From Bdellovibrionota bacterium (GTDB lineage Bacteria; Bdellovibrionota_C; UBA2361; JAAYZI01): a stretch of DNA of 64,000 nucleotides. The position numbers were made by a program, and so were the translations under genes. The notes under the pieces are model-generated. The model was not told the DNA's origin, did not search any database, and saw nothing but the letters and a program-made list of their open reading frames with translations. Shown here one piece after another: positions 2,985-62,650 of the stretch (within the stretch, counting starts at the first letter, position 1; each line of letters starts with the position of its first letter). The stretch spans positions 192,001 to 256,000 of the forward strand of contig JBMNIF010000001.1 of assembly GCA_050950765.1 (NCBI GenBank), given 5' to 3'.

Positions 2985-3235
2985 TTAGGGGCGCTGCCTT
3001 TTGCTAATATATTGATATTATTAAGTTGCTGTAAACTTAAAGTTTGAATGCCTTAATTGTAAAGCGTTCAGCGCTGAAGGGCGGCACTTTTTACCTTCGT
3101 AAAAATCTAGCTAATTCGCTTTGCAGTTGCACCCCTTTTAACTGTTCTTAGAGGGTGGTGTTTCTACCTCCGTTAAAATCTAACCAATTCGTTTTTTAGT
3201 TGTAGCCCCTCAATCGTCATTGGTGGGTGGCACCA
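2985..3235 (+). repeat. Degenerate GGGTGGCACCA mosaic array (partial D module plus two A modules)
   Basis: Exact core at 3225, degenerate cores near 3079 and 3152, A-type module sequence, IHF-like site at 3005-3017. Confidence 0.75.
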
Positions 3236-3238
3236 GAG

Positions 3239-4384
3239 TTACAGGTTTTGCAATAGTTTCTTTGCCGTTCTTTCCCAAGTGAATTTTTGCAGAACCAGCT
3301 CTTTAAGCTTTTTTATAGCTGTAATCTTATTTTTATTGTTTATAGCCTTTTTTAATCCAGCATAGATGCTTTCTTGTGTATTGTCATTCAACACAATCCC
3401 GTAAGTATCATCTAAAATTAGATCTTCAACATTACAAGCTTTTGTACAAACTACATAGCTTTCACAGATTGCAGCCTCTAATAAAACACTAGCAAACCCT
3501 TCAGAGTCACTGGGAAGACAAAAAATATCTGTCTGATGTTGTAAAATAATACATTCTTCAAAAGAAAGTGACCCTAATACAATTATATTTTTATTGGCTT
3601 TTGCTTTTATCGTAGGATATAGAACGCCATCTCCGGCGATAAAAAGAAAAATATTTTTATTTTCTTCACTTAATTTCTGGAAAGCTGCTAACAATTGAAG
3701 AATCCCCTTAAATTTAAACAATCTCCCGATAAAACTTATTACTATTGCTTCTTTAGGAAGATGAAATTCGTCTCTAAAATTTCTTTTTCTTTTTGTTAAT
3801 ATATCTTCGATAGCATGACTATCAACGCAGTTTGGTAGTACACCCTGTCCCGTAATAGCAAAATGGTTCAACCATCTTTTCCCACCCGCAGAAACCGCAC
3901 AGAAATTTTTACAGTAGCGTTTAAGTAAAGAGGTAATGCAGTGTTCGTAAAGATTAGTAGCAAGATCCAGTAAGCGATTATTAAATGTTAAATGCGCTGA
4001 TCCGTGTTCTATCACTAGGCATTTAATGTTGTTTTTATAAGCTAAATAAGCCATAAGCAATGATTGTAAATAAAATCTGCAATTAATGACCATTGAATCA
4101 AAGCGAGCATCTTTTATCTGCTTTATCAATAGAAAAGATTTTGCACACGGATAAGGGATCGGGAAACGACCATGTATTAACATCAAACTTTTTAAACGGT
4201 AAAAAGAGATATCTTTATCTTTTTCATCAAGAGAATAGTTATCACAATTCGTTGTGACAACAGTAATGTGATGTCCCATTTTTGTTAATTCAGAAGCTAT
4301 GGATTGAGAATATTTACCAACTCCTCCTGTATATGGAGGATAATGTACAGTTGATATGCAGATCTTTTTCCTATCTTTTTTCAC
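3239..4384 (-). CDS. Glycosyltransferase family 4 (GT-B) protein
   Basis: N-terminal YPPYTGGVG, FIGRL..KG, DIFCLPSDSEGFASVLLEAA (ExF...LLEA), C-terminal FTWE. Confidence 0.9.
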   Translation of the reverse strand: MKKDRKKICISTVHYPPYTGGVGKYSQSIASELTKMGHHITVVTTNCDNYSLDEKDKDISFYRLKSLMLIHGRFPIPYPCAKSFLLIKQIKDARFDSMVINCRFYLQSLLMAYLAYKNNIKCLVIEHGSAHLTFNNRLLDLATNLYEHCITSLLKRYCKNFCAVSAGGKRWLNHFAITGQGVLPNCVDSHAIEDILTKRKRNFRDEFHLPKEAIVISFIGRLFKFKGILQLLAAFQKLSEENKNIFLFIAGDGVLYPTIKAKANKNIIVLGSLSFEECIILQHQTDIFCLPSDSEGFASVLLEAAICESYVVCTKACNVEDLILDDTYGIVLNDNTQESIYAGLKKAINNKNKITAIKKLKELVLQKFTWERTAKKLLQNL

Positions 4385-4560
4385 AAATTACGGCACTATT
4401 AAAATTATGCAGTATGTATAAAATTACTTTTCTTTTTCATCAAAATTACATTTTTTTAGTAAACTTACTAGCTAAAGAATATTTTCATTATGATTATTCG
4501 TGCCAGAGGCTAATTTCGTTAACAATTTCAATATGGCAATTGGCAAGAGCATGGGCATCC

Positions 4561-4720
4561 TTGAAGGGTGGCACTTTTTACCTTCGTAAAAATCTAGCTA
4601 ATTCGCTTTGCAGTTGCACCCCTTTTAACTGTTCTTAGAGGGTGGTGTTTCTACCTTCGTTAAAATCTAGCTAATTCGCTTTGCAGTTGCAGCCCGCTCA
4701 ATTGTCACTGAAGGGTGGCG
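4561..4720 (+). repeat. Degenerate mosaic array (two A modules); near-identical to 3075-3200
   Basis: tgaagggtggcactttttaccttcgtaaaaatctagctaattcgctttgcagttgcacccc...gagggtggtgtttctacc repeated at both loci. Confidence 0.8.
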
Positions 4721-4725
4721 TTAAG

Positions 4726-5145
4726 TTACCAGTTATGTTGCCATGAAATAGTGATGGAAAGATTGTGAGTTTTTGAATCTATTGTAACTATATTTATGGC
4801 GTTGCTGGAGTCTACTTTGTCTATTGTAAAAGAAGTTGGATGCGGATCTACTTCGTAGATAGCAAGGCGATAGAAATTTTTTGTACTTTCATCAAGGACG
4901 TTTTTTTCTTGAAGCTTAGCAAATAAACTTTTGTCGAGTAAGGTAGATGAAGGTGTCTCTGTTTTCGCATCACCTTTCATTACTACTGATGCAAGGAGAG
5001 AGTCCGCTTTCTGTTCTGATTTTTTAACGGTCAGTATATTGTCAAAATTAAGTGCATCCGAAGTAGCAAAGGTATCTGTGACAAATAACAGTAAAACCAT
5101 TAATGTAAAAAAAGTCGACGTGAACAGTATGCTTAAACACCTCAT
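4726..5145 (-). CDS. Hypothetical exported protein (likely start ATG 5145)
   Basis: AGGAG RBS before ATG 5145, hydrophobic signal-peptide-like N-terminus, C-terminal Trp. Confidence 0.55.
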   Translation of the reverse strand: MRCLSILFTSTFFTLMVLLLFVTDTFATSDALNFDNILTVKKSEQKADSLLASVVMKGDAKTETPSSTLLDKSLFAKLQEKNVLDESTKNFYRLAIYEVDPHPTSFTIDKVDSSNAINIVTIDSKTHNLSITISWQHNW

Positions 5146-5404
5146 AGCTTTCACTCCTACCGACAACACTACAAGCAAAAGAGTAAGATCTACTTCCCTC
5201 AATGAGCGGAACAGCCGCTTTAAAACCTCGTCAATTATTGCTTTGTACTTGATGTTTTGGCGTGTTTTTTAGAGGTAGAAAAGAATGTGCCAAGCGATGA
5301 AATGGTAATTTTGTAATAAAACTAAGATCTTATCTTAGAAAGAGCTAAGATATTTTTTAAGAAAAAGCACCTAACTTCCGAGCTCAAATACTACTAGGCT
5401 AGCT

Positions 5405-5890
5405 AGAGGGTGGCATTTTTAACCCCCGTCAAAATCTAGCTGATTCGTTTTGCAGTCGCAGCCTGTTCAATCGTCCCTGAAGGGTGGCACCAGTGACAGC
5501 CAGCTACAAAGAAGGGTGGCACCAGATCTGCCGAATTTTGGATTTTTGCTAATGTCTTGATATTATTAGATGTTATGATTTTGAAGTTTGGATGTCCTAT
5601 TTACGAAGCGTCTGCAACGCTGAAGGGTGGCACCAAATTTTATCCCGTCTTAGTGAAGGGTGGCACCAGTGACAGCCAGCTACAAAGAAGGGTGGCACCA
5701 GATCTGTCGAATTTTGGATTTTTGCTAATGTCTTGATATTATTAGATGTTATGATTTTGAAGTTTGGATGTCCTATTTGCAAAGCGTCTGCAACGCTGAA
5801 GGGTGGCACCAAATTTTTGACCTTCGTGAAAACTTAACCAATTCGCTTTTCAATATCAGCCCGCTCTGTTGTCCTTAGAAGGTGGCAAAT
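5405..5890 (+). repeat. GGGTGGCACCA mosaic array (modules A-B-D-E-B-D-A)
   Basis: Exact cores at 5482, 5514, 5625, 5658, 5690, 5801; degenerate terminal cores near 5408 and 5880. Confidence 0.95.
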
Positions 5891-5901
5891 TTCTCAAAAA
5901 A

Positions 5902-7851
5902 TTATTCATACCTTAAAGCATCAATCGGTTTTAAGCGAGCAGCTTTTAAAGCAGGATAGACACCAAAAAAGATTCCAACAGCGAATGAGAATCCAAGAGC
6001 CATAAAAACTGATTCCGGTGTAACGTAAGTTGCCCAATTTTTATAGTATGACAACGCTAAACTGGCACCCCAACCACAAGCCACACCGATTATGCCGCCA
6101 CAAGTGCTGATTAGGAATGATTCTATTAAAAATTGCATTAGGATATCACGTCTCCTAGCACCTATTGATTTACGAATGCCTATTTCGCGAGTTCGTTCCG
6201 TCACGGAAACAAGCATGATGTTCATAATGCCGATACCACCGACTAATAAAGAGATACCTGCGATAGAAGCAATTAACATTGACATGGTGCTACCCGTAGA
6301 AGTCATCATGTCTTGTATCTCTGCCATGTTGCGAATTAAAAAAGCATCCTCAATCTGAGAAGGTGGAACTTTATGACGTTTTATGAGTAGCTGCCTTATA
6401 CTTTCTTCAATGGAGAACATATCAGCAGCAGTAGACATTTCAACGTCTATTAAATCGATATAATTTTTCCCGAAAAGACGACGCATGGCAGTGGTGTAAG
6501 GGATAATCACAATATCATCCTGATCCATAGGACCCGATGAGCCTTTTTCCGGTAGAACTCCGATCACACGAAAGTTAATGCGATTAATTTTAATGGTGGC
6601 ACCAACCGGATTCTTGGTTCCAAACAACTCTCTAACTACGGTTACTCCAAGTAAAGCGACAGTGTCGCGTTGATCCACTTCCTGTTGATTAAAGAACCTG
6701 CCGATAGTTGGTGTGGCTGCTTTAATCTCTTCATAATCAACAGAGGTGCCTGTGATGGATGAGTTGCGATTGTTGTTTAAGTAAACCACTTGAGCATTTT
6801 GCCTGACTGATGGCGCAGCGTTTTTTACACCACTAATCTGTTTTTTAATGGCATTAACATCATCCATCGTCAGCTGAGTGACTAAGCCACTCTCGAGAGC
6901 AACACCCCCACTTTTAAAAGCTCCCGAACGAACCATTAAAAGGTTAGAACCCATCTTTGAAATCTGTTTCTCTATGGATTTTTGCGCACCTCGTCCGATG
7001 GCAAGCATCGCTACAACTGCAGCAACTCCGATTAAAATTCCCAACATAGAAAGGAAAGCGCGGATCTTATTAGCTCGAATTGATCGAATCCCCTGCCTAA
7101 AATGTTCCGATAATTCAGCTAAAAATGAGGGATGATGCGACTTTGCAGGTGAGGCGGAGTGCTTTTCTATTTGAGGTAACTGACCAAACTCTTCATCAGA
7201 AATGATCTTGCCGTCACGCATTCTGATAATGCGTCTGGCTTCCTTACCGATCTCTTCATTGTGCGTTACGATAACAACAGTAATACCTTGAGTGTTCAGA
7301 TCTTTTAATAAATTTATAATCTCACGTTCACTGGCAGAATCTAAATTACCGGTTGGTTCATCAGCAAGAATTAGAGTGGGAGTGTTGATAAGTGCTCGCG
7401 CTATTGCAACGCGTTGTTGTTGTCCACCGGATAGCTCTGTTGGACGATGTGTAGTGCGTTCCCCCATCCCGACCAAGTTTAACAGTTTGATGGCGTTAGT
7501 ACGTTCTTTTAAACGACCAGAATAGACAAGGGGGAGTTCTACGTTCTCTTTAGCGTTTAATCGCGGTAGTAAATTAAATTGTTGGAAGATAAAGCCGATT
7601 GTATCTCTTCTTAATTCTGCTAACTTGTCTTCATCGTAACTCTTAATCTCTTTGCCATTAAGGATATATTCCCCCGTGTCTGCGTGATCTAATAACCCTA
7701 TGACATTCATTAAGGTGGATTTGCCAGAACCTGAAGGTCCCATAATAGCGAGAAACTCACCATCCCTGATGGTTAAGGAGACGTCATCCAGCGCATGAAC
7801 ATCATTATCTCCGAGGTGGTAAGTTTTTTTTAAGTGTCGAAGTTCTAACAT
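5902..7851 (-). CDS. macB: MacB-type ABC transporter, fused ATPase and permease
   Basis: [35 protein letters not shown]; permease [24 protein letters not shown] and PIDALRYE. Confidence 0.92.
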
Positions 7852-7862
7852 AAGATAGTACT

Positions 7863-8822
7863 TTATTTTTTACGTCTGAATTGCGGCATAAAAGGGCTTA
7901 CTTGCCTCTCTGTATTTTCGAATAAAAGAGATTTTGTTACGTAGATAGTATCGCCAACCTGTAACCCATTTTTTACTTCAATTAAATCTCCTTCCGAATC
8001 ACCAACCTCTATCTGAACTTCTGTGATCTTGTCTTTAGCTGCAGGGATCTGGACATAAGTTTTACCATTTTTATATTTTACAGCACTTTGTGGAATAACG
8101 ATGATGTTTTCTTTTGTCTCTACGTTAAAAGTGATGTTGGCTGTCATCCCACTACGCATAAAAGCAGGCGTAGCTTCCGGAATAACATCAACAATGTAAG
8201 TAGTGACATTATTAACGGTAGTGGCTTCGTAAGCGATATGAGAAACGGTGGCAGGGATCTGCTCTTGAGGATAGGCATCCAATACAATTGTGGCTTTTTG
8301 TTGTAATAAAATTTGCCTTAAGTCTGTCTCATCAACTTGCGCTTTAACAACAAGCCTGTCGGACAATACAAAAACCGCTTCATTTGAAAAGGTTTGTCCT
8401 GGTTCTACGTCACGTAAAATAACGGTTCCTGAAATCGGAGCATAGATCGGAGTAGGTTTGTAGTACTGTTGCCACTTTGAAAGTTCAGCAGGGCTGATAG
8501 CGCGCGCTGCATCAAGCAACGCCGCACGTTCCGTAGAGCTCATCCATGCCAAAAGTTGACCGTTCTTAACCTGATCGCCTTCATTTACTAAAACCTCTTC
8601 AACACGACCTGCAATAGGAGGCTTTATCTCCAAACGATTTTGCGGTTCAACCGTACCCGTTGTTAAGACGGTAGTAGAAATTTTACCAAGTTTAACCGTT
8701 ATTTTTTGCAAGGGTTTTTCAGTTTCCTTACGAGGTTGAGAGAGGGCAACTTTTATTTGCAGTGTAAGTGGTAATATTAAAAGTGCAGCTATAATCAGTG
8801 GTTTTATAATTCTTTGTGTCAT
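7863..8822 (-). CDS. MacA-like periplasmic adaptor (membrane fusion protein)
   Basis: Lipoyl-like GRVEEVLVNEGDQVKNGQLL, APISGTV, VDETD, MRSGMTA; between macB and the OM factor. Confidence 0.88.
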   Translation of the reverse strand: MTQRIIKPLIIAALLILPLTLQIKVALSQPRKETEKPLQKITVKLGKISTTVLTTGTVEPQNRLEIKPPIAGRVEEVLVNEGDQVKNGQLLAWMSSTERAALLDAARAISPAELSKWQQYYKPTPIYAPISGTVILRDVEPGQTFSNEAVFVLSDRLVVKAQVDETDLRQILLQQKATIVLDAYPQEQIPATVSHIAYEATTVNNVTTYIVDVIPEATPAFMRSGMTANITFNVETKENIIVIPQSAVKYKNGKTYVQIPAAKDKITEVQIEVGDSEGDLIEVKNGLQVGDTIYVTKSLLFENTERQVSPFMPQFRRKK

Positions 8823-8825
8823 GGT

Positions 8826-10151
8826 CTATAAAGCTCCTTCTCCAATGGATTGTTCCCAATTTGCTTCTGCAACAACCCGCTCACGTTCGCTTAAAAGTTC
8901 AGATTTTTGATAATTGATTAATTCCGTTTCGATGATATCCCAATTTTCAAAATTCAGTAGACCGATATTGTATTTATGACGACCGATCTCGGCACGAACA
9001 GCGGAAGCTTCGCGTAGGTTGGTTTGAATCTGTACTTTGTCTTGAGCTGATTTCATAGCTGTATATGCAGACTTGATATTACTACGTACTGCTTGCATCG
9101 TGGCTACTTCAGAAGCTTTGGCTGCGGCTAAGTCAGACTTTGCTTTCGAAACTTTATTTTTATTTCTACCGAAAGTAAAAATCGGGATAGAGGCGTCTAA
9201 ACCTATCGCATAATTTTCCATACTATCCATAGAATCTCCATCCATCACCCCAGATTGTGCTGTTAGATTTATACTTGGATAGAGCGCTGATCTTGCAGTT
9301 TTTAGTTGTGCTTCTGCGTTCTCTTTACGAGCTTGGCTAAGTCTCACCTCCGGATGATTGATAATCTCTGTTTCAAGATCATATTTAGCGATCACTAAAG
9401 GCGGCATGTCACCATCAATGATCTGTAAGGTGCTTGCATCAGGTCTTCCTAAAACTTTTGCCAACGCTATACGTGAAGATTCCACTTCGCGCAGGGCTTG
9501 CTCTTTTTCATAGAGAGCCTGCTCATAAAGTGCTTTAGCTTGCAGATACGATCCCTTATTTTCATTTCCGCCTTTATAACGTAAAGACACGACATCTAGG
9601 TTCTCTTTTCGACGTTGAGTGATCTTTGTGGCGAGCTTAACGTAACGTTGCCAATACAGCAGAGTGCTAAAAGAAGTTTTTAATTCTGCGCTGATACGAG
9701 CTTTCGCTAATGCAATATTAGCTTTGCTTTCAGCATATCCGGCAGTGGCTTGCTCTAAGGCGGCATCATTAGCAAAACCTGAAAAGATATTCTGCGTAAC
9801 AGAGATAGTGCCTGTTACAGTAGTTCTATCTGAAGAAGCGCTGTTCATATTGGTGATGGATCCACCTTGGCTAAATCCGTTCCCGTAATTATTACGTCCT
9901 CCCCACGAATCACTACGTTGTGAGGAGAGTCCGGCACCGATGCTCGGACGATAATCTGCTTGAGCAACTTTTTGCTGAAAAGCTGAGGCATCTTTTGAGT
10001 GATAGAGAGACAAGAGCTCCGGATTATTTTCGTTAGTTTCTTTTACACAATCTGCAAATGAAAGGGGTGAAGTTTTAAGCTCTTCGGCAAAAACATTACT
10101 GGATAAAAATATCTGAATAATCAATATGTTGAATATTTTATTTATCATCAT
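8826..10151 (-). CDS. TolC-family outer membrane efflux protein
   Basis: Signal peptide, NNPEL, repeated OEP halves (YRPSIG / LYPSINL), first gene of the tripartite exporter operon. Confidence 0.85.
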   Translation of the reverse strand: MMINKIFNILIIQIFLSSNVFAEELKTSPLSFADCVKETNENNPELLSLYHSKDASAFQQKVAQADYRPSIGAGLSSQRSDSWGGRNNYGNGFSQGGSITNMNSASSDRTTVTGTISVTQNIFSGFANDAALEQATAGYAESKANIALAKARISAELKTSFSTLLYWQRYVKLATKITQRRKENLDVVSLRYKGGNENKGSYLQAKALYEQALYEKEQALREVESSRIALAKVLGRPDASTLQIIDGDMPPLVIAKYDLETEIINHPEVRLSQARKENAEAQLKTARSALYPSINLTAQSGVMDGDSMDSMENYAIGLDASIPIFTFGRNKNKVSKAKSDLAAAKASEVATMQAVRSNIKSAYTAMKSAQDKVQIQTNLREASAVRAEIGRHKYNIGLLNFENWDIIETELINYQKSELLSERERVVAEANWEQSIGEGAL

Positions 10152-10254
10152 GGTGTAAATATTTCGCGTTCTTTTTAAATGTATAAAAGAGGATGATAAA
10201 CATAAATAGGCGTCATTAAAAAGAGTTTCTAAGTTTCGAGTGTAGGCAATTTTA

Positions 10255-11035
10255 AATTTAGGATACCCACTTTTTACTGGGTTTTTAAGCTTTTGCTAAT
10301 GTCTTAATATTATTAACTATTGCAATTTTAGAGTTTGGATGTCCTATTTACAAAGCGTCTGCAACGCTGAAGGGTGGCACCAGATTTTTAACCCCCGTGA
10401 AGATCTAGCTGATTCGTTTTGCAGTTGCAGCCCGTTCAATCGTCACTGAAGGGTGGCACCAGAACTGCAGCCGCCAAGATCTGACAAATCTGCTTATACT
10501 GAAGGGTGGCACCAGTTTTTTAACCCCCGTGAAGATCTAGCTAATCTGTTATGCAGTTGCAGCCCGCCCGATCGTCCCAGAAGGGTGGCACCAAAACTGC
10601 CGAATTCTAACTTCTGCTAACATCTTGATATTATTAGCAGCGCTGGTGGGTGGCACCAGTGATAGCTAGCCATAAAGAAGGGTGGCACCAAAACTGCCCG
10701 ATTTTGGATTTTTGTTAACGTCTTGATATTATTAGCAGCGCTGGTGGGTGGCACCAACGACAGGCAGCTACAAAGAAGGGTGGCACCAGATCTGCCGAAT
10801 TTTAAGGTTTTGTTAATGTCTTGATATTATTAGATGTTGTAATTTTGAAGTTCGGGTGTCCTATTTGCAGCGCTGAAGGGTGGCACCAGTGATAGCTAGC
10901 TACAAAGAAGGGTGGCACCAGTTTTTTGACCTCCGTAAAGATCTAGCCGATCCGGTTTTGTAGTTGCAGCCCGTTCGGTCGTCCCCCAGATTTCTGAAGG
11001 GTGGCACCAGATCTCCGCTTTTTAGTCGCAGCCTG
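10255..11035 (+). repeat. GGGTGGCACCA mosaic array (11 exact cores)
   Basis: Cores at 10372, 10451, 10504, 10583, 10648, 10680, 10746, 10778, 10878, 10910, 10999, separated by A, B, D, short-D and unique modules. Confidence 0.95.
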
Positions 11036-11057
11036 CGCAACTTTAGAAAAAGGTTTT

Positions 11058-12905: not shown

Positions 12906-12909
12906 TCCT

Positions 12910-24339: not shown

Positions 24340-24365
24340 GAGTCTCCTTAGTTTTCTTTCACCTA

Positions 24366-25175
24366 ACTTTTTACCTCCGTAGAGATCTAGCCGAACCGTT
24401 CTGCAAGTTGTAGCCCGTTCGGTCGTTACTGGTGGGTGGCACCAGATCCACTAAGCTATCGCTGCCAATTAGGACACCCGCTTTTAGCTAAAGGGTGGCA
24501 CCAACGACAGCAGCTACAAAGAAGGGTGGCACCAAAACTGCCAGATTCTAGGCTTTTGTTAACGTCTTGATATTATTAGATGTTGTGATTTTGAAGTTTG
24601 GGTGTCCTATTTGCAAAGCGTCTGCGTCCCTGAAGGGTGGCACCAGATCCAAGCCAAACCAAAGCCCCATTAGCCAGCTACAAAGAAGGGTGGCACCAAA
24701 TTTTTAAACAGCCCGTCCGGTCGTTATGGTGGGTGGTACCAGTGACAGCCAGCTACAAAGAAGGGTGGCACCAAATTTTTAACCTCCAGTTTTTTGACCC
24801 CCGTTCTATCGTCCCTCAAGGGTGGCAACCAGTGACAGCCCCGATAAAGAAGGGTGGCACCAAAACTCTGAAGGGTGGCACCAAAACTACCTGATTTTGG
24901 GTTTTTGTTAACGTCTTGATATTATTAGATGTTGTGATTCTGAAGTTTGGGAGAAAACTCTAGTGGGTGGCACCAAATTTTTGACCTCCGTGAAGATCTA
25001 GCCGATCCCGTCTTGCAGTTACAGCCCGTCCGGTCGTTACTGGTGGGTGGCACCAGATCCTCCGTCAACATCTAGCCGATTCGGTTTTTAGTTGTAGCCC
25101 GTCTGATTGTTCTTAGAGGGTGGAGGGGTCGTTACTGAAGGGGTAGGGAGATCATCACCTGAAGGGGGCGGGGAA
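24366..25175 (+). repeat. GGGTGGCACCA mosaic array (10 exact cores plus variants) between convergent proA and lptB
   Basis: Cores at 24434, 24493, 24524, 24635, 24688, 24763, 24852, 24873, 24965, 25045; variants at 24731 and 24820; decayed G-rich tail. Confidence 0.95.
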
Positions 25176-32937: not shown

Positions 32938-32979
32938 GAAAAAGCGTCCTTAAAAACTTCTTCTTATATTTCAATAGGT

Positions 32980-34035
32980 CAGTTTTTTAACCCCCGTGGA
33001 AATCTAGCCGATTCATTTTTTAGTTGCAGCCCGTCCTGCCGTCCTTGAAGGGTGGCACCAGTTTTTTAACCCCCGTGGAAATCTAGCCGATTCATTTTTT
33101 AGTTACAGCCTGTTCTATCATCCTTGAAGGGTGGCAGCAGATTTTTGACCTCCGTAGAGACCTAACCGATTCGGTTTTTAGTTGCAGCCCGTTCAACCGT
33201 CCTTGAAGGGTGCCGTTCTTGGTGGGTGGCACCAGTGACAGCCAGCTAAAAAGAAGGGTGGCACCAAAACTGCCGAATTTGAAACTTTTGTTAACATCTT
33301 GATATTATTAGAAGTTGTGATTTTGAAGTTTGGGTGTCCTATTTGCAAAGCGTCTGCGACGCTGAAGGGTGGCACCAGTGACAGCCAGCTAAAAAGAAGG
33401 GTGGCACCAAAACTGCCGCATCCTTGAAGGGTGGCACCAGATTTTTGACCTCCGTAGAGACCTAACTGATCCCGTTTTTTAGTTGCAGCCCGTCCCGTTA
33501 CTGGTGGGTAGTACCAAAACTGCCGAACCGATAAAGAAGGGTGGCACCAAAACTGCCGAATTTGAAACTTTTGTTAACATCTTGATATTATTAGAAATTG
33601 TGATTTTGAAGTTTGGGTGTCCTATTTGCAAAGCGTCTGCGACGCTGAAGGGTGGCACCAAATTTTTAACCTCCGTAGAGACCTAACCAATTTGTTTTTT
33701 AGTTGCAGCCCGTCCCGTTACTGGTGGGTGGCACCAAAACTGCCGAACCGATAAAGAAGGGTGGCACCAAAACTGCCGAATTTTGGGTTTCTACTAACGT
33801 CTTAATATTATTAGAAGTTGTGATTTTGAAGTTTGAGTGTCCTATTTGCAAAGCGTCTGCGACGCTGAAGGGTGGCACCAGTGACAGCCAGCTAAAAAGA
33901 AGGGTGGCACCAAAACTGCCGAATTTGAAACTTTTGTTAACATCTTGATATTATTAGATGTTGTGATTTTAGAGTCTTTTAGCTCTAATGGGTGGCACCA
34001 AATTTTTCAGTTCCTAATGGGTGGCACCAAATTTT
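32980..34035 (+). repeat. GGGTGGCACCA mosaic array (14 exact cores; largest in the window) between convergent hisS and nth
   Basis: Cores at 33050, 33224, 33256, 33367, 33399, 33429, 33539, 33650, 33726, 33759, 33870, 33902, 33990, 34019; variants at 33129, 33208, 33506. Confidence 0.96.
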
Positions 34036-34668
34036 TTAGTTGTTAATGTTGCAAGAGGGGCAGATCTTACATAGCTTACACTCATCACAGAGCGGATTTC
34101 TTGCTTTGCAGACACGACGACCGTGATAGATCAGTTGATGATGAAGATCGCGCCAACTGTCAGCAGGAAATTGTTTTGTTAAATCACCCTCAACCCCCTC
34201 TGGCGTTTTGGCGGAAGATAACCCTAAACGGTTTGAAACTCTAAGTACGTGCGTATCAACCGGCATTGCTGGTCTAATCCCTTTTTCACACTGTATAACA
34301 TTAGCAGTTTTTCTCCCTACCCCGTGAAGACTTATCAGATCGTCATGCTCCGTAGGTAAAGTGCCATTAAAATTTTCCATAATGCGTTTGGCAAGTTGTA
34401 CAATATTTTTTGACTTCGTCTTGTAGTAATTAACTTCACGGATTATCTCCTCAACATCTTTCTCTTTAGCAAGACTGAGCTCTTTAAAGTTACGATACCT
34501 CTTAAATAAAGAGGGTGTAACTTGATTAACTTTTTTGTCCGTACATTGAGCAGATAAGACTACTGCGATAATTAATTGATAATCGTTTTTAAAGTGTAGC
34601 TCCGAAGAAGGGTTCGGATAAAGTTCTGATAAAAGAGTTAATAACCGTTTTCGCTTTTGAGGTGTCAT
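34036..34668 (-). CDS. nth: Endonuclease III
   Basis: LSAQCTD, HhH LHGVGRKTANV, VDTHV.RV, C-x6-C-x2-C-x5-C Fe-S motif. Confidence 0.97.
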   Translation of the reverse strand: MTPQKRKRLLTLLSELYPNPSSELHFKNDYQLIIAVVLSAQCTDKKVNQVTPSLFKRYRNFKELSLAKEKDVEEIIREVNYYKTKSKNIVQLAKRIMENFNGTLPTEHDDLISLHGVGRKTANVIQCEKGIRPAMPVDTHVLRVSNRLGLSSAKTPEGVEGDLTKQFPADSWRDLHHQLIYHGRRVCKARNPLCDECKLCKICPSCNINN

Positions 34669-54250: not shown

Positions 54251-54302
54251 TTGTTTGGGCTAAGTAGATAGAATAATCGAAAAACTAAAAAGGGAGAGTG
54301 GT

Positions 54303-55073: not shown

Positions 55074-55369
55074 GAGATAAAAGAGAAGTTAGAAGGTGGA
55101 TGAAGGGGTGCTTGGCGTGTAAAGGGTGTTATTAGAAGGTTAGTGCATAAGAGATAAAAGAGGGGTTAGAAGGGGGGTAAGGGGTGTTTGGCGCGTAAAA
55201 GGTGTTATTAGAAGGTTAGTGCATAAAAGATAAAAAGAGAAGTTAGAAGGTGGACAAAAGGTGTTTAGCGCATAAAGAGGTGTTGAAGGAGGTTAGGTGC
55301 TTAAAAGATAAAAGAGAAGTTAGAAGGTGGACAAGAGGTGTTTAGCGCATAAAAGGAATTATTAGAAGG
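55063..55369 (+). repeat. Purine-rich tandem repeat, 4 x ~77 bp
   Basis: Units start at 55063, 55140, 55216, 55293 (ttagtgcataagagataaaagagaagttagaagg...). Confidence 0.9.
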
Positions 55370-55473
55370 TCAAAATTTTGTAAAATTTGATTAGCAAAAT
55401 TATGAATGGCATAATCTCGGGCGGTAACGCAGGCTACCTTAATCTTGGAACAATTGTGTGTAATGGAGTTGTT

Positions 55474-57012
55474 ATGAGTAATTTTGGCGTTGGGACGGGC
55501 GGGGGAGAATCATTATTGGCTAATGGATTACCACGAGGAATAGGTCTTACTAATTTTAGTGGTCTTGGAAGTGGCGAAGCTATCGTTAACTATGCAGAAG
55601 AATTGGCTGAGAGTGGTGATTGCCAGAGAGCAATGGAGGTACTGTCTAAAAACTATGGAACATTTGAGCCAGAAGTAAGAAGAGATGATGAAGGTAAGAT
55701 AAAACATATCGCACGATGTTATGTACAGTTCGTGCGAGAGACAGCTAAAGAGTTAGCCGAAGCAGGAGAAAATAATAAGGTAGAAGCGTTTAAAAGGTCG
55801 CTAAATGAGAGATTAAAAACCATAGGTAATGCCTTAACTGACGAGGAGATAGGAGAATTTAAATCTTTGGAAAAACATGCACTAGATCAAGCTGAAAAAA
55901 TCGCTTGGAATTCTATTAAAGAATTTGTTGAGACTGGGGAAGTTAGGCGTGTTAAATTCCAGATTATATCTTATGAAGATAGGTTTGGTAAAATTGATGA
56001 AAGTTCTCCTCTTACTATTAAATCTGCTCTTATTAAAGAAGCAAAAGAAAACGCCTTGCAAAGAGCGTTAGGTGAAATAAGTTATTTTAATAACGAGGGG
56101 AATGTAGAGGCTGCTTTAAAAACCTTAGAGGAAGTTAAAGAGGAAGTGGGGGAGAGGTTTCCTGAAGGGAACTTTTTTTCTATTGCAAAAAATAATATTT
56201 ATAAAAATGCGGTTAAAAAAGCATTGGAACAGGGCAGAGATGCTACTGCTGCTGGGAACGTAGAAGAAGCTATTAAATTGCTTAACTTAGCAGGGAAATA
56301 TGCTGAATACTGTGATACGAGATATGATTATACACATTTCAAATGCGAATTTTATCAAATCAAATGCAAAATTTATCAAAATGGAATAGACCAAGGTTTA
56401 ATTGAAATATCTTCAATCCTTGAAGAGGGTGATATTAATAAAGCTGACAGAAATTTACAAAAGGTTTTGGAATATCAAAGAGGAATAGAAGGTCTGGGAG
56501 GATTTTTCAGTAAAGACGCTTTAAAGAAAATTGAAAACGTTAAAATTGCTATAGCTAAAAAGAGGGTGGTTGAGGACTTCTCTCCGCTTGAGCGTAATTT
56601 GGAAAAATTAGAAGAGCTTTGTGGGGGAAAGACCCCTTATAAGGATGCTCAGCATGTTACACTACTTCTTGATAAAGTTTTCGAGAGGATTCAAACGATG
56701 GAGGAAGCTTTAAAACTTCTTCAAGATAGCTCTTTAGTTGGTTCAATGCAGGCTGATGAAATAAGAGATAAATTAAAAAATGTAAGAGATACTGCTTGCC
56801 ACTATGGAATTAAAAACGAGCTTCGACTTGTTTCCATCTATGCTGCTAATGGAGATGAGAGAACCATTGGAGCTTCTGAAAAAGCCATTCGTAAATACCA
56901 TAAGATGCTTGGTAGTGAGGTGCCAGATGAAATTGAGAATTTTCTAGATGATGCAAGAGCATTATGCGACAAACGCATAGAGGAGAAACAATCAGAGTGG
57001 GATGATTTATGA
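55474..57012 (+). CDS. Orphan all-helical (TPR/solenoid-like) hypothetical protein (ORF track start 55387)
   Basis: GGAG before ATG 55474; recurring GNVEAA / GNVEEA / GDINKA helical repeats. Confidence 0.7.
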   Translation: MSNFGVGTGGGESLLANGLPRGIGLTNFSGLGSGEAIVNYAEELAESGDCQRAMEVLSKNYGTFEPEVRRDDEGKIKHIARCYVQFVRETAKELAEAGENNKVEAFKRSLNERLKTIGNALTDEEIGEFKSLEKHALDQAEKIAWNSIKEFVETGEVRRVKFQIISYEDRFGKIDESSPLTIKSALIKEAKENALQRALGEISYFNNEGNVEAALKTLEEVKEEVGERFPEGNFFSIAKNNIYKNAVKKALEQGRDATAAGNVEEAIKLLNLAGKYAEYCDTRYDYTHFKCEFYQIKCKIYQNGIDQGLIEISSILEEGDINKADRNLQKVLEYQRGIEGLGGFFSKDALKKIENVKIAIAKKRVVEDFSPLERNLEKLEELCGGKTPYKDAQHVTLLLDKVFERIQTMEEALKLLQDSSLVGSMQADEIRDKLKNVRDTACHYGIKNELRLVSIYAANGDERTIGASEKAIRKYHKMLGSEVPDEIENFLDDARALCDKRIEEKQSEWDDL

Positions 57013-57047
57013 ATAGCTGAAGTCTTAGCAAAAACGGTATAATTGCG

Positions 57048-57095
57048 AAAAAAAGAAAGGCTGGGAAATAAAAAAAATCCGTAGCCTTCCTTTTT
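57048..57095. terminator. Bidirectional terminator-like hairpin
   Basis: aaaaaagaaaggct...agccttcctttttt between convergent genes. Confidence 0.55.
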
Positions 57096-57113
57096 TATTT
57101 TGTATTCACCTCT

Positions 57114-57455
57114 CTACCACGGCAATAAAGGTAGGTGTCGCCTATGCGGTGGTGGTGGCGGTGGGGGTGGTAGATGCCTGTGAGGTGGTGGCATGTGCCG
57201 ATATCTATGATGTGGCGGTATGTGCCTATATCTCGCTGGTGGTGGCGGCATATGTCCGTGATGCGGCGGTGGGGGTGGTAAGCGTCTATATTCCGCTGCT
57301 GGTGGTGGCGGTGGGGGTGGAGGTCTATGACCATACCTATGCGGTGGAGGTGGTGGCGGAGGGGGAGCCCAACCTTGTGCGTTGGCGATAGAAGGCGCTG
57401 TTGTAGATGCACAAAGTGCAACTACGAAAGCGACTAATACTAAGTAACGTTTCAT
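57114..57455 (-). CDS. Secreted Pro/His/Arg-rich low-complexity protein (start ATG 57455)
   Basis: GGAG RBS, signal peptide MKRYLVLVAFVVALC...ANA, then poly-Pro runs interspersed with HR/RY. Confidence 0.7.
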   Translation of the reverse strand: MKRYLVLVAFVVALCASTTAPSIANAQGWAPPPPPPPPHRYGHRPPPPPPPPAAEYRRLPPPPPHHGHMPPPPARYRHIPPHHRYRHMPPPHRHLPPPPPPPPHRRHLPLLPW

Positions 57456-57738
57456 AAGTTCTCCAATAAATAATAAATAAAAAGGTTGTTCAATTTTTAC
57501 TTGCACTGTGTATGATAAAGCGCTTCATACCTTAATTTATTCTAAATAGAATCTCTTGTATGACGAGTACTTTAAAACGGTATTAAGTGTAAGCACTGCT
57601 ACGTTAACACCTTGAGCAGAACTGCAACAGTAAGAGAGGAATAATTCTTTTTTTTATTTTTTAATGAAAAATACTTTAAAGAGGGTAAAAAGAAAGGAAG
57701 CGCCGCTAAAAAGTGTGATAAAGAAGGGAAAAGAAGCG

Positions 57739-58971
57739 TTATTTTACCGTTATAAGGATGCCTCCTAAGACCTTTTTGTCACCTTCGTTAAAGTATAAGG
57801 TGTTTTTTTGTGCGGTACCTTTTTTTGAAAAAAAGATTTTCAAAACACCTTCATTAGAAAACTTATCCAAAGAAGCTTGCAGGGTTACCTTTTGTAAAAG
57901 ACGTGTCCTTCGTTTTGAAATATCAAGGTAGACCTTAGCAGGAAGAACTCCCTTGAATTTAGTTGGTGCATCTTTTATCGGTGTGATGTCGCCTGCTATC
58001 TTTATCTTAATTATCCACGGTTTGGGAGGAACCTCTTCTGCCACTTCTAGAGGGGTTAATTCAGGTGGTCTTGGAGTGCTGATCGTTACGGTAGTTTCAA
58101 GCGTGTTCGCATCTGTAAGGTTTAGATCAGCTTGTGCTGAAAAAGTAGTGTTTGAAACTTCTCCGTGAAAAAAATGAGGAGCTTCTTCTATTACGGACTC
58201 GGTGTCGGGGATAATGGAGGTTTGAAGTGGTTTGTTTTTTAAGTCACTTTGAGTTTGATCGATCTCCTGCGGTTTAAAGAGAAGAGCTATTGCAAAAACA
58301 GGGATAACTAAGATTAACGAAGCTAGCGATGTTTTAAATTTTTCATTTTGTAGTAACGTCTGTAAAAACTTTTTAATACGGTTGTAATGAGCATTTGAAG
58401 GTAGGGAAAGCTTTTTAGGAGGAGTGAAGCTTGAGGGAGAGGGTAGAGAAAGTTTTTTAGGAAAAGTGAAGATTGAGGAAAGGGACAGAAAAAACTTTTT
58501 AGGAAAAGTGAAGATATAGGAAAGGGATAGAAAAAACTTTTTAGGAAAAGTGAAGATTGAGGAAAAGAGTTTAAATTGTTTTAGCTTTTCAGGTTGTCGT
58601 GGTTGTTTTGAGGCTTGAGGTTCTAAGAGAGAGGGAGAGGGTTTTGGGGTAGCGATAGTGCTTGCTGCACGTTTGTCTCTATCTATTAAGCGCATAATGG
58701 AGTCTTCTGCAGTAGTGGTATCTTTTTGCAGGATAGGTTTATTGAGACCTTCTAAGAGGTCTTTTAATTCGGCATCTTCGTCAAAGGAGGAGTCTGCATC
58801 ATCTTGCGGAGTCAGAGTATACACCCGTGGTTCCTTACTCCTTTGAGGAGTGGAAGAAACTTCTAACTCAGAAAGATCCAACTCGATCTCAAAAGAATCA
58901 TCCAAGAACTCTTCAGATTCAGGGTTGGTGCCTTTTAGACCTGATTGTGACGAGAAAGTATCATCACTCAT
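57739..58971 (-). CDS. Hypothetical single-pass membrane protein with acidic N-terminus and 14-aa repeats
   Basis: GGAG RBS, acidic N-terminus, (S)SIFTFPKKFFLSL x3, TM segment SLILVIPVFAIALLF. Confidence 0.7.
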   Translation of the reverse strand: MSDDTFSSQSGLKGTNPESEEFLDDSFEIELDLSELEVSSTPQRSKEPRVYTLTPQDDADSSFDEDAELKDLLEGLNKPILQKDTTTAEDSIMRLIDRDKRAASTIATPKPSPSLLEPQASKQPRQPEKLKQFKLFSSIFTFPKKFFLSLSYIFTFPKKFFLSLSSIFTFPKKLSLPSPSSFTPPKKLSLPSNAHYNRIKKFLQTLLQNEKFKTSLASLILVIPVFAIALLFKPQEIDQTQSDLKNKPLQTSIIPDTESVIEEAPHFFHGEVSNTTFSAQADLNLTDANTLETTVTISTPRPPELTPLEVAEEVPPKPWIIKIKIAGDITPIKDAPTKFKGVLPAKVYLDISKRRTRLLQKVTLQASLDKFSNEGVLKIFFSKKGTAQKNTLYFNEGDKKVLGGILITVK

Positions 58972-59083
58972 AAAACCTAATCTCCATACTTGTCAGATCG
59001 GTATTTGCGTTAATATCCTAAAGTGCAATTATCAAAGGGAGATGGAAAACGTGTTGTTGAATCTCCTTTCCCTTTAAGCTTCC

Positions 59084-59240
59084 GAGTGTTTTGGAGATTT
59101 TTCCCCTCTTTTTGTTTAATTTTTGAGTTTTTTTTTGAGGTGTTTTTTTCACTCTCTGTATAATTTTTAAGTTTTTTTGAGGTGTTTTTTCCCTCTCTCT
59201 GTTTAATTTTGAGTGTTTTTTGAGTGTTTTTTCCTCTTTT
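59084..59240. repeat. T-rich imperfect tandem repeat (~44 bp, ~3.5 units) upstream of menA
   Basis: Recurring gagtgtttttt / gaggtgtttttt(c)cctctct / gtttaatttt blocks. Confidence 0.7.
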
Positions 59241-59250
59241 TGGAGAAGCG

Positions 59251-60141
59251 ATGAGTTTTTTTAATGCAATAAAAATTTGGTTTTGTGCGTGTCGTCCTAA
59301 AACGTTGGTTGCTTCTGCTATGCCAGTTTGTGTTGCTTTTGTTATGGCGGCTGAAAAAGAGGGTGCTAAGCCGCTAGTATTTTTTATAACACTGTTTTGC
59401 GCTATTGTGATACAGATTGCGACTAATCTGATTAACGATTACTTCGATTATTTAAAAGGTGCTGATACGGAGAATCGTTATGGACCAACACGGATGGTGA
59501 CGGCAGGGCTTGTTTCGGTACGATCAATACGTATTGCGATAGCGATCTGTTTAATTGTAGCTCTGCTACTTGGTGGTTATCTGGTGCTACTTGGTGGGTA
59601 TCCGATCGCTATAATCGGTATTATCTCTTTAATTTGTGCTTTTGCATACACGGCAGGACCTTCTCCATTGGCGTATAACGGCTGGGCGGATCTCTTTGTT
59701 TGGATATTTTTCGGGCCGGTGGCGGTGGGTGGAACGTATTATCTTTTAACAGGTGGTGTTACGTTTAGTAGTTTGCTTGTAGGCGCTGCTTTAGGTTCTC
59801 TTATAACATCGATCTTGGTGGTGAATAATTTGCGTGATGTGGATGGAGATCGGAGGGTAAATAAAAGAACTTTGACGGTCAGATTTGGCGAGAAGTTTTC
59901 AAAGGCGCAATATCTGATCTTAATGTCACTTGGTGCTATCATTCCGATAGTGTTGCTCTCTTTTTTGGAAAAGCGGTATGGGGGGTTGCTTTCTCTGTTG
60001 TATCTTATTTTAGCACTCTCGTTGATGAAAAAAGTTGTCACACAAAAGAAAGAGAAGTTAAATCGAGTCTTGGAATTGACAGGTGCGACAGTGTTTCTGT
60101 TTTCCCTATTTTTTTCTATCGGCTGGTGTTTGCATATTTAA
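59251..60141 (+). CDS. menA: 1,4-dihydroxy-2-naphthoate polyprenyltransferase (start ATG 59251)
   Basis: RPKTL, QIATNLINDYFD..KGAD, YTAGP.PLAY.G, VNNLRD...D....KRTL.VR.G. Confidence 0.95.
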   Translation: MSFFNAIKIWFCACRPKTLVASAMPVCVAFVMAAEKEGAKPLVFFITLFCAIVIQIATNLINDYFDYLKGADTENRYGPTRMVTAGLVSVRSIRIAIAICLIVALLLGGYLVLLGGYPIAIIGIISLICAFAYTAGPSPLAYNGWADLFVWIFFGPVAVGGTYYLLTGGVTFSSLLVGAALGSLITSILVVNNLRDVDGDRRVNKRTLTVRFGEKFSKAQYLILMSLGAIIPIVLLSFLEKRYGGLLSLLYLILALSLMKKVVTQKKEKLNRVLELTGATVFLFSLFFSIGWCLHI

Positions 60142-60248
60142 TGTTTTATGGGGTACACAAAAAAAAAATCTTTTGATACAATCAACCTCAACGCAAGGAG
60201 GTCTCAGTTTTTATAAGTGTAACTTACCGTGTTTTTTGATGTGTTAAT

Positions 60249-61667
60249 ATGCAAGAAAAAGAAAACCTTGAAGTAGCTGCTCTTCGTAAATTATTGGAAC
60301 AAGATGGGATATCGACGATCTCTGTAAATAATGCGGTAAAAAATTATGCGCGTTTTTTGGCGGGGGAAACAGGCTATGTGCCTGCCTCTGAAATCAAATC
60401 TGTTGATGATGTGGTTCATTATGAAGAGTTGATTAATTATGCAGGTTTCGGAGAAAAAGCTCTCTCAAAGGTGGCTATCATTAATTTAAATGGTGGTCTT
60501 GGAACTAGCATGGGGTTGTCATCGGCGAAATCTCTTTTGAATATTAAGGATGGTTTCTCCTTTCTCGATATTACGGTGGCGCAGGTCGAATACATGAGAA
60601 AAAAGTATGAGATAGATCTACCGTTATTATTTATGAACAGCTTTAGTACTGATGCAGATACAAAAGCGGAGCTGAAAGATTTTGAAAATAAAGGGGATTT
60701 ACCAGTCTCTTTTTTACAAAGCAAAGTTAGGAAGATAGATCTTAAGACGTTGCGTCCTGTTAGTCATGAGGAAGACAGGAGTTTAGAGTGGTGCCCTCCA
60801 GGGCATGGGGATGTTTATGCAGCGATGTATCAAAATGGGATCCTTGATCTTCTACTTGAACACGGGTTTGAATATATTTTCATATCTAATGTAGATAATC
60901 TTGGAGCAACATTAGATCTCAATATCTTAGGATATCTAGCAAAGACTGCAGCTCCGTTCATTATGGAAGTGGCAGATCGGACAGAGGCTGATAAAAAGGG
61001 TGGGCACCTAGCGCGTAGGAAAAGAGATAATCGCTTAATTTTGCGCGAGTTGGCGCAGTGTCCTGAAAATGAGCAGCAAGAGGGTGGAGATTTTCAAAAT
61101 ATCCGTAAATATAAATACTTCAACACTAATTCTTTATGGTTAAACATAAGATCTTTAAAAGACCTTATGGATAAGACAGGCGGCGTGATGGAGTTGCCTT
61201 TGATTGTAAATCGGAAAACTGTAGATCCGAGGGATGAAACGACTACGGCAGTGGTACAACTTGAAACGGCAATGGGGGCAGCTATCTCTTCTTTTGATGA
61301 GGCTGTGGCTGTGCGTGTGCCGCGTACTAGATTTGCACCCGTAAAGTCCACTGACGATCTGATTGTGTTAAGGAGTGATCGTTATAGACTTACTCCGGAA
61401 AAGGAGATCGTTTTAGATGTTGGATGTGTTGGTTCTGCTGGTATCTCTATTAAGTTAGATAAGTGTTTTAACAAAATTGACGATTTTGAAGCACGCTTCA
61501 GTGAGGGAGTTCCTTCAATGATCGCTTGTGAAAGTCTACTTATAGAGGGAGATTTCTCTTTCGGATCTGGTGTTAAATTAATAGGCAATGTTAAGTTGTG
61601 TAACAAAACAGGAGCGCAGGTGCAGATCCCCGCTGGCGCAGAGCTAAAAGGTAAAATAAGTTTTTAA
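60249..61667 (+). CDS. UTP-glucose-1-phosphate uridylyltransferase, UDPGP (eukaryote/UgpA-type) family
   Basis: LNGGLGTSMG, KSLL, WCPPGHGD, SNVDNLGA, DKKGGHL, FNTN.LW, LETAMG, RFAPVK; C-terminal beta-helix. Confidence 0.92.
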   Translation: MQEKENLEVAALRKLLEQDGISTISVNNAVKNYARFLAGETGYVPASEIKSVDDVVHYEELINYAGFGEKALSKVAIINLNGGLGTSMGLSSAKSLLNIKDGFSFLDITVAQVEYMRKKYEIDLPLLFMNSFSTDADTKAELKDFENKGDLPVSFLQSKVRKIDLKTLRPVSHEEDRSLEWCPPGHGDVYAAMYQNGILDLLLEHGFEYIFISNVDNLGATLDLNILGYLAKTAAPFIMEVADRTEADKKGGHLARRKRDNRLILRELAQCPENEQQEGGDFQNIRKYKYFNTNSLWLNIRSLKDLMDKTGGVMELPLIVNRKTVDPRDETTTAVVQLETAMGAAISSFDEAVAVRVPRTRFAPVKSTDDLIVLRSDRYRLTPEKEIVLDVGCVGSAGISIKLDKCFNKIDDFEARFSEGVPSMIACESLLIEGDFSFGSGVKLIGNVKLCNKTGAQVQIPAGAELKGKISF

Positions 61668-61679
61668 AGGAATTCGCTG

Positions 61680-62650
61680 AAGGCGAATTTGGTGCCACCC
61701 TTCTTTTTTGCTGCTTTGACGGCTTAGGCGACTGGATGGATTTGGTGCCACCCACTAGGGACGCAGACGCTTCGTATCGTATCGTAAATAGGACATCCAA
61801 ACTTCAAAATTACAACATCTAATAATATCAAGATGTTGGCAAAAACCCAAAATCGGGCAGTTTTGGTGCCACCCACCAGTAAAAAGTGGGTGTCCTAATT
61901 AGCATCTACTAAAAACGAATCGGTTAGGTTTTCACGGGGGTAAAAATTTGGTGCCACCCTTCAGCTAAAAGTGGGTGTCCTAATTAGGATCTAATAATAT
62001 TAAGACGTTAGCAAAATCTTAGGGGTTGGCGAATTTGGTGCCACCCTTCTTTTTTGCTGCTTTGACGGCTTAGGCGACTGGATGGATTTGGTGCCACCCA
62101 CTAGGGACGGTAGAACGGGCTGTAACTGCAAGACGGGGCAAAAATTTGGTGCCACCCACTAGTAAAAAGTGGGTGTCCTAATTAGCATCCCACCCACCAG
62201 TAAGACGGGATCTGGCAGATTTGGCTGGGCTTGGATCTGGTGCCACCCACTAGGGACGGTAGAACGGGCTGATACTGAAAAACGAGTCAGCTAGGTCTGA
62301 ACGGGGGTTAAAAATTTGGTGCCACCCTTCAGGGACAACAGGACGGGCTGCAACTTGTAGTGGATCTGGTGCCACCCACCAGTAAAAAGTGGGTGTCCCA
62401 ATTAGCATCTAATAATATCAAGATATTAGCAAAAGCTTAGGGTTCAGCGAATTTGGTGCCACCCACCAGTAACGGGACGGGCTGCAACTAAAAAAACAAA
62501 TTGGTTAGGTCTCTACGGAGGTTAAAAAACTGGTGCCACCCTTCAGGATACTCCCTTCAGGGACAACTGAACGGGCTGTAACTGAAAAGCGGGGTCGGCT
62601 AGATCTGGACGGGGGTAAAAAGTGGGTGTCCTAATTGACACCCTTCAGCT
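61680..62650 (-). repeat. GGGTGGCACCA mosaic array in reverse orientation (12 exact cores)
   Basis: TGGTGCCACCC at 61690, 61743, 61864, 61949, 62036, 62089, 62147, 62238, 62317, 62367, 62454, 62531. Confidence 0.95.

Follow-up and report, generated by a model that had tools for sequence, protein, structure and literature searches.

An 11-nucleotide core repeat in mosaic intergenic arrays and around a RAYT-like Y1 HUH gene of a Bdellovibrionota genome

A stretch of 64,000 nucleotides (nt) from a Bdellovibrionota genome (C1:192001-256000; hereafter the window) contains intergenic arrays in which copies of an 11-nt sequence, GGGTGGCACCA (the core), are separated by non-coding segments (modules). 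The window's own assembly (G000; 2.64 Mb, five contigs, 40% GC, 94% complete) holds 943 exact cores in 129 arrays, together with six near-identical copies of a gene for a Y1 HUH protein, and cores are inverted around every one of these copies. The core is probably the end repeat or recognition sequence of this single-stranded DNA (ssDNA) endonuclease-transposase of the RAYT/TIRYT class, and would have spread as a non-coding repeat family. Homologues of the gene in related genomes lie between inverted repeats specific to their own lineages. Within the arrays of G000, homology breaks preferentially at cores, and local duplication is the main mode of growth.

The Y1 gene and its flanking cores

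The six gene copies share a unit of ~1.4 kb at ~97.5% nucleotide identity. The minimal stretch common to them runs from 2 nt before a reverse core to 5 nt past a forward core and, read in the direction of the gene, the order along the unit is reverse cores, reverse core, 35 nt, forward core, ~150 nt, gene, ~230 nt and forward cores. All nearby upstream cores (within a few hundred bases) are reverse and all directly downstream cores are forward in 6/6 copies, so the arrays point outward from the unit, a pattern that insertion into an existing one-directional array would not leave. The gene is flanked by a 19-bp exact inverted repeat that contains the core. Its 3' flank carries two perfect CTGGTG-GGTGG-CACCAG hairpins (z -3.26, equalled by 0/200 shuffles), and the fold of the inverted core pair at its 5' end has z -5.64. 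The copy closest to the window (C1:184282-185247) lies 7 kb to its left.

Parts of the unit were also seen as further copies. On contig C2 (~8.8-9.1 kb) its last 422 nt are tandemly duplicated, with cores on both sides, giving an open reading frame (ORF) for an 85-amino-acid (aa) fragment that is 84% identical to the C-terminus of the Y1 protein. At C1:385498-385556 an inverted core pair heads an array without a gene, its 35-36-nt spacer matching that of the pair upstream of the Y1 gene; the pair at this site is a remnant, or else a doublet that moves on its own.

Cores were assigned to the same array when neighbours were ≤ 400 nt apart. The largest array has 28 cores and the total span is 64.2 kb, or 2.4% of G000. 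Orientation is uniform in 112 of the 129 arrays and mixed in the other 17. By crude ORF calls, 892/943 cores lie outside ORFs of ≥ 100 aa. The core, which contains the dyad GGTG-G-CACC and extends to a consensus cTGAA-core-rAT, is kept far more exactly than the modules between its copies: the 943 exact copies compare with only 140 one-mismatch variants in the genome, and two-mismatch variants (413) are roughly at chance level by simple arithmetic. Contig C5 (113 kb), which carries one copy of the Y1 gene, is the densest in cores (96, or ~0.85/kb, against 0.36/kb genome-wide). Both ends of contig C2 are rich in arrays, while ~340 kb of it around the GC-skew minimum (460-800 kb; the likely origin) showed a single core in a 20-kb tally.

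Within the window there are 54 exact cores, whereas dinucleotide-preserving shuffles average 0.01 and never exceed 1, and allowing one mismatch adds five sites (total 59). The exact cores fall into six loci, each with uniform core orientation and each situated between ORFs of ≥ 100 aa:

2985..3235, plus strand: degenerate array with a single exact core (3225-3235) besides decayed ones (GGGCGGCAC, GGGTGGTG), its modules being D-like and A-like
5405..5890, plus strand: array of 6 exact cores (5482-5811), module order A-B-D-E-B-D-A, with a truncated core at either end
10260..11009, plus strand: array of 11 exact cores (10372-11009)
24360..25130, plus strand: array of 10 exact cores (24434-25055) and a one-mismatch core (24731), between convergent genes
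32974..34029, plus strand: array of 14 exact cores (33050-34029) and a one-mismatch core (33129)
61690..62541, minus strand: array of 12 exact cores, with convergent flanking genes of the UDPGP family (plus) and for a sulfatase (minus)

The array at 10260..11009 is flanked by an outer-membrane efflux gene (minus, start 10151) and rpsB (plus, start 11201), and that at 32974..34029 by hisS (plus) and the gene for an HhH-GPD glycosylase (minus). A hairpin-type context, CTGGTGGGTGGCACCAG, occurs at 24429 and 25040 in the array at 24360..25130. Arrays come very close to the stop codons of convergent genes, with distances of 3 nt for the minus-strand ORF 3239-4384 (core 3225-3235, within 3225-3241) and 7 nt for the glycosylase gene (last core; 34019-34038). 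An Rfam scan of the window returned 0 matches.

A preliminary description of the window, made from its letters alone, had counted 54 exact cores in one orientation per array, placed them all between genes, read the modules at 5.4 kb as A-B-D-E-B-D-A and seen no candidate enzyme in the window. Each of these statements is borne out, and the genome-wide map of the core that it envisaged is the one given above; mapping gives six loci, however, where it had seven. The HUH/RAYT-type partner that it suggested is the best candidate, as cores are inverted around 6/6 copies of the Y1 gene, and this partner would presumably cut at the core. A tyrosine recombinase flanked by arrays, which it had also considered, did not emerge: the three tyrosine recombinase genes found in G000 are each ≥ 14 kb from any array of ≥ 5 cores.

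The Y1 protein and its relatives

Searching G000 with the Pfam family Y1_Tnp (PF01797) returned six matches, in open frames of 332-350 aa. The protein itself is 322 aa long, has the motifs NHFH and YIYINP and matches PF01797 with an E value of 1.2e-6 (29.1 bits; cut-off 23). It matches the NCBIfam model REP_Tyr_transpos at E 1.2e-18 but, as its score of 67.4 bits falls below the equivalog cut-off of 80, it is a relative rather than an equivalog. The score against the NCBIfam IS200 model is weak (17.7 bits; cut-off 55). By sequence it also matched the E. coli TnpA-REP structure (PDB 4er8; E 5.2e-5). Among 15 homologues, residues H61, H63, Y121, Y123, N125 and P126 are invariant and S142, S143, C266 and C283 nearly so. 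A structure model built from these homologues (predicted local distance difference test score 88.5) had 4er8_A as its top match both with Foldseek (E 5.2e-7, TMt 0.71) and with VIA-align (Z 14.3, root-mean-square deviation 2.8, 154 of 165 residues aligned), the VIA-align runner-up being IS608 with a Z of only 7.8. The protein is thus of the Y1 HUH class, with a predicted fold that is RAYT-like, of the TnpA-REP kind.

Residues ~155-322 form a second conserved domain. Whole-model searches gave no convincing fold match for residues 160-322, the best being to HAMP-like helical hairpins (Z 5.4), and a Pfam search of the 322-aa protein returned no helix-turn-helix (HTH) match. Searched alone against 1.84 billion representatives, the C-terminal domain matched 276 clusters at E ≤ 0.001 and 78 at E ≤ 1e-10. 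In full-length matches it has the same position, in proteins of ~320 aa.

Relatives of the protein are common in the order. Matches at E ≤ 1e-10 were found in 80/91 of its genomes, with 1 to 16 per genome and several in many of them, and most of those listed are full-length. A collection of 5.8 billion sequences yielded only 16 related proteins, every one on a contig of ≤ 4.1 kb; contigs as short as this are typical of a repeat-flanked, multi-copy gene in short-read assemblies. Twenty homologue loci were inspected, 19 of which had an ORF with the Y..NP motif, and in 9/19 the gene is flanked by exact inverted repeats of ≥ 10 bp. The downstream repeat is ~200-330 bp from the stop codon across the nine loci (~200-255 bp in eight of them). 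Seven of the nine repeat pairs have the outer ends CTGG.../...CCAG, with an inner sequence specific to each. In G015 a core-related sequence, GGCACCAGTTCGTGGG(G), is repeated 11 times in tandem immediately at the 5' end of one homologue, and in G007 two gene copies have two copies of that genome's own motif on either side.

The exact core of G000 is enriched in just one other of the 91 genomes, G019, which belongs to another family; RpsB of G019 is 50% identical to that of G000, compared with 64% for a genome of the same family. In G019, GGGNGGCACCA had 39 matches, of which almost all are the exact core; the control had 2. The flank consensus there is AAAACA-core, and the modules are unrelated C/A-rich stretches. 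At four loci on contigs C8 and C9 of G019 (L156, L160, L161 and L162), AT-rich segments of 110-150 nt lie between inverted cores (TGGTGCCACCCTGTTTTA ... TAAAACAGGGTGGCACCA) and resemble miniature inverted-repeat elements.

Metagenome contigs were scanned for the pattern core-N40-70-core, a scan whose results may leave out G000 and genomes near it. Of at least 115 stretches found, 80 were examined, and nearly all proved to be unrelated coding or minisatellite repeats on contigs of 45-74% GC; only L225 was like the G019-type arrays, and no close relative of G000 was found among the 80. Among the matches listed for a 14-mer searched against 596 billion bases of genome contigs, hits were single, scattered over unrelated phyla and chance-like. 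In the metagenome sequences L185 and L186, an 18-nt minisatellite, GGGTGG(C/T)ACCAGTCTGT(C/G), contains the 11-mer dozens of times on a contig which also has a TAC microsatellite. This minisatellite looks unrelated and possibly eukaryotic, and the frequency of the 11-mer in it means that the 11-mer alone is not diagnostic. A full-text literature search for the 11-mer retrieved 18 papers, in all of which the match was a primer or otherwise unrelated, and no description of this repeat family came up with the string itself or with RAYT and REPIN terms, the only ones tried.

The distribution of the core also bears on the possibility that a host protein binds or recognizes it (in nucleoid organization, DNA uptake, segregation or termination), with selection maintaining the site and the Y1 element copying or targeting it. 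Conservation of the core well above that of the modules is in keeping with such a site, as are the dyad, which would suit a dimeric protein, and the recurrence of the identical 11-mer among unrelated modules in the distant G019, where no Y1 gene was detected. However, the copies are clustered in arrays that make up 2.4% of the genome and are not spread along the chromosome, with a single core at 460-800 kb of C2, around the GC-skew minimum. Furthermore, the equivalent motif in relatives is lineage-specific and marks the ends of the Y1 gene, which is how a transposon end behaves, unlike a host site. A host-protein site is therefore quite unlikely.

Modules and the growth of arrays

The 796 inter-core segments of G000 comprise 700 distinct sequences, which form 382 clusters. 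The largest family, A (~68 nt), accounts for 157 segments; 20 belong to the full D family (~100 nt), and 25 are of the B kind (21 nt). Mean pairwise identity is 0.75 among the 157 A copies and 0.79 to 0.91 in five other families. Modules are often truncated or fused (for instance, the head of D with the tail of A, or A without its middle), and internal deletions within modules often ignore core boundaries. The small library of reusable modules recognized in the preliminary description is therefore real, in that the modules it named are present, but ragged.

Joints between modules are concentrated at cores. In alignments between arrays, 50.6% of left ends fall ≤ 6 nt from the start of a core and 45.2% of right ends ≤ 6 nt from its end, compared with 18.3% for random positions. 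Across the core, the type of module tail (..GAA or ..GGT) is independent of the type of head (A.. or G..) that follows. Homology breaks at cores, together with this free pairing of tails and heads, indicate a mosaic joined at the core. Genome-wide, module boundaries tend to coincide with the core, as had been supposed, apart from the internal deletions that disregard it.

The nearest relative of a module is mostly found in the same array. This was so for 86/132 A modules (3.3 expected), for 14/14 D modules and, in other families, for 17/26 (F1), 15/20 (F2), 10/12 (F4) and 9/9 (F5). Tandem duplication of a whole block is visible at 5.4 kb, where B-D is repeated. It follows that arrays grow mainly by local duplication and that dispersal between loci is older. 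Of the module shuffling proposed in the preliminary description, the breaks at cores stand, whereas closest relatives that share an array speak against a common pool from which modules are freely drawn.

These patterns raise the question of whether the arrays are satellites formed and reshuffled only by host processes (slippage, unequal crossing-over and short-homology recombination), with cores as the longest homology and the Y1 element as a bystander. Array-mates as usual nearest relatives (for A, F2, D and F5 alike), tandem multi-module duplications and the common internal deletions and fusions are what such processes may produce, and homology-driven exchange also gives breakpoints at cores. 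Slippage, however, leaves unexplained how the core and the module families came to occupy 129 loci, and it does not account for an exact core (943 copies against 140 with one mismatch) beside modules at 75-91% identity. Nor does it explain the outward, opposite arrays at all six gene copies or the homologues elsewhere, which have their own ...CCAG inverted repeats at like distances. For these reasons, we regard host processes alone as an unlikely origin of the arrays.

Variable segments between short repeats of the same orientation also recall CRISPR or integron arrays, which would be served by Cas proteins or an integrase. Yet the segments fall into recurring families instead of being unique spacers, the repeat has just 11 nt and the arrays occupy 129 loci. 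The distance of the three tyrosine recombinase genes from arrays of ≥ 5 cores is a further point against such a system (Cas genes were not searched for), which is hardly credible here.

Public sequencing runs containing part of the window (20 rows, from 13 studies of digesters and bioreactors) were also considered, and contigs of four runs were compared. Unique DNA is near-identical in the four (0-1 differences over an 8,024-nt contig), and the contigs of all four break inside arrays. The numerous contig joints derive from arrays elsewhere in G000, which leaves array differences from sample to sample unreadable. One contig of run X3 joins 32979 to 33059 and lacks the 79 nt between them (32980-33058), equivalent to one A module and a core; this gap may be due to assembly collapse, as two adjacent copies of A have > 31 identical bases in common. 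No RNA data set with this stretch was present among the 20 run rows.

Placement, related systems and a working model

Arrays are about two-fold enriched in convergent intergenic spaces, which contain 41/129 arrays but make up 321/1963 of all spaces. A similar preference has been reported for REPs (PMC3733652). By strand of the flanking genes, 41 arrays are in (+,-), 45 in (-,-), 25 in (+,+) and 18 in (-,+) contexts, and no rule relating array orientation to the transcription of flanking genes was found among the 129 arrays. At 81 cores, the core is followed by N4-CTGC, the head of D- or H-type modules, creating TGGCAC-N5-CTGC (for example, at 10583-10605 and 33256-33275). Its spacing resembles that of the -24/-12 elements in sigma-54 promoters.

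The arrays might accordingly be RNA or transcription signals, whether terminators or stabilisers, protein-sponge RNAs or sigma-54-type promoters. Convergent-space enrichment, arrays that abut stop codons, the 81 sigma-54-like sites and modules that are richer in C than in G on the core strand (25.1% versus 18.3%) are consistent with this. On the other hand, array orientation is independent of the flanking genes, the window has no Rfam match, modules fold no better than shuffles and 0/81 of the sigma-54-like sites have the TTGC form, making a role as signals very improbable.

Among known systems, the closest are REP/BIME-RAYT and TIRtron/TIRYT, and it is the one-directional mosaic arrays that are unusual. 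TIRtrons are described as RAYT-like TIRYT genes between terminal inverted repeats unrelated to REPs; some have the motif GGGGWSAS in their ends, and some give rise to repeat families, called 'moderately abundant', whose members occur as dimers or in clusters (Di Nocera et al. 2013, PMC3733652). The unit in G000 similarly has a Y1 HUH protein with Y..NP between inverted repeats other than GTAG hairpins, end repeats able to form families, a protein longer than classical RAYTs and SS after the catalytic region. It differs in that the repeat is present in 943 copies, in long one-directional mosaics, rather than in 'moderately abundant' families. The sequence GGTGGCAC fits GGGGWSAS at 6/8 positions and the G015 form GGGGGCAC at 7/8, for a motif that is stated for some TIRtrons only.

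Most TIRYTs are placed in TnpA-Y1 subclass 2.1, with a median length of 238 aa and an HTH-like tail, while members of subclass 2.3 have a median length of 325 aa and the motif NHYH, are multi-copy, lack flanking repeats and come from Chromatiales and Alteromonadales, in the account of these subclasses by Quentin et al. (2018, PMC6006769). Compared with the published description only, the present protein resembles subclass 2.1 in NH[YF]H and the SS tail but is unlike it in length (322 aa versus a median of 238), in having no HTH match in Pfam and in its six 97.5%-identical copies. Its resemblance to subclass 2.3, again by description, is in a length of ~325 aa and in being multi-copy, whereas its flanking repeats set it apart. 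Going by these descriptions, the protein combines features of subclasses 2.1 and 2.3 with a different tail, and its end repeat is expanded about a hundredfold.

The REP/BIME-RAYT and REPIN-RAYT systems, as presented by Nunvar (2010, PMC2817692), Bertels & Rainey (2011, PMC3116915) and Bertels (2017, PMC5581495), share with G000 an abundant extragenic short repeat that is inverted around a Y1 HUH gene. Composite mosaics with limited linker types, enriched downstream of genes, are a further likeness to REPs and BIMEs, and E. coli TnpA-REP is the best structural match of the modelled protein. RAYTs are, however, typically single-copy and vertically inherited, in contrast to the six copies here, and the 170-aa C-terminal domain is missing from classical RAYTs. 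IS200/IS605 elements have in common with the G000 unit the Y1 HUH fold and a near-identical, multi-copy gene unit, but IS200 transposases have Y...Q instead of Y..NP (Quentin et al. 2018, PMC6006769). They are also only ~150 aa long, with same-strand subterminal hairpin ends and not the inverted repeats seen here, and the IS200 score of the protein is weak. In the neisserial dRS3/RS mosaics a short dyad repeat bounds reusable non-coding intergenic units, and dRS3 is the target of an IS110-like recombinase of filamentous prophages. A short dyad repeat bounding a small set of reusable units is thus common to both, but the sequences are unrelated and no IS110-type gene was found in G000 (94% complete).

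Several observations weigh against the core being an end repeat of the Y1 protein. The majority of cores are unable to fold into a hairpin (69/943 have the full 6-bp stem and 215 a 5-bp form), and A and D modules, taken together with their cores, show no more structure than shuffles. Canonical REPs are imperfect palindromes of 20-40 nt with GT[AG]G-footed hairpins, which are absent at most cores; GTGG is present in the core, yet away from any hairpin foot. BIME repeats alternate, whereas 112/129 arrays here are one-directional. The replication-strand bias of cores is weak (535 leading versus 408 lagging, with cores of one array not being independent), although an ssDNA enzyme acting on the lagging strand might leave a stronger mark. 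In G019 (92% complete, 20 contigs), which carries 39 copies of the core, no Y1 gene was detected. In three relatives the end motif is rare beyond the gene flanks (11, 11 and 4 copies), in assemblies that are fragmented and may have lost arrays. Finally, array-mates as closest relatives could equally arise by host recombination or slippage.

If the core is nonetheless the end repeat of the Y1 protein, as we favour, the enzyme would bind and nick ssDNA at or beside one core and rejoin it at another. Core-bounded segments would thereby be seeded at new intergenic sites, and cores would become hot spots of exchange. An established array would expand chiefly as core-bounded modules are duplicated locally, singly or several at a time, and would decay by internal deletions. 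Binding, the nick site and strand transfer are what we infer for this enzyme, as are cassette-like movement of modules and any host benefit.

A more far-reaching proposal, which is possible but doubtful, is that each core-bounded segment is a miniature non-coding cassette, copied, deleted or swapped at any core by the long Y1 enzyme, whose C-terminal domain (at least 276 clusters) would adapt it to hairpin-less ends. If true, this would amount to one-directional, integron-like shuffling of intergenic DNA and would provide a working model for how BIME-type mosaics are built.

The mechanism by which REP/BIME arrays form is still treated as a proposal in the literature (PMC6006769, PMC3733652). 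G000 is a clean case, with one Y1 family, one mostly hairpin-less 11-nt core, 129 readable arrays and an outward orientation. It also brings to notice a RAYT-like family of ~320 aa with an uncharacterised C-terminal domain, present in 80/91 genomes of an uncultured order. As members of this family are nearly always on very short public contigs, the repeats around them are probably under-assembled and under-reported. The interest of these arrays lies mainly in their being a tractable case for the formation of REP/TIR-type mosaics.

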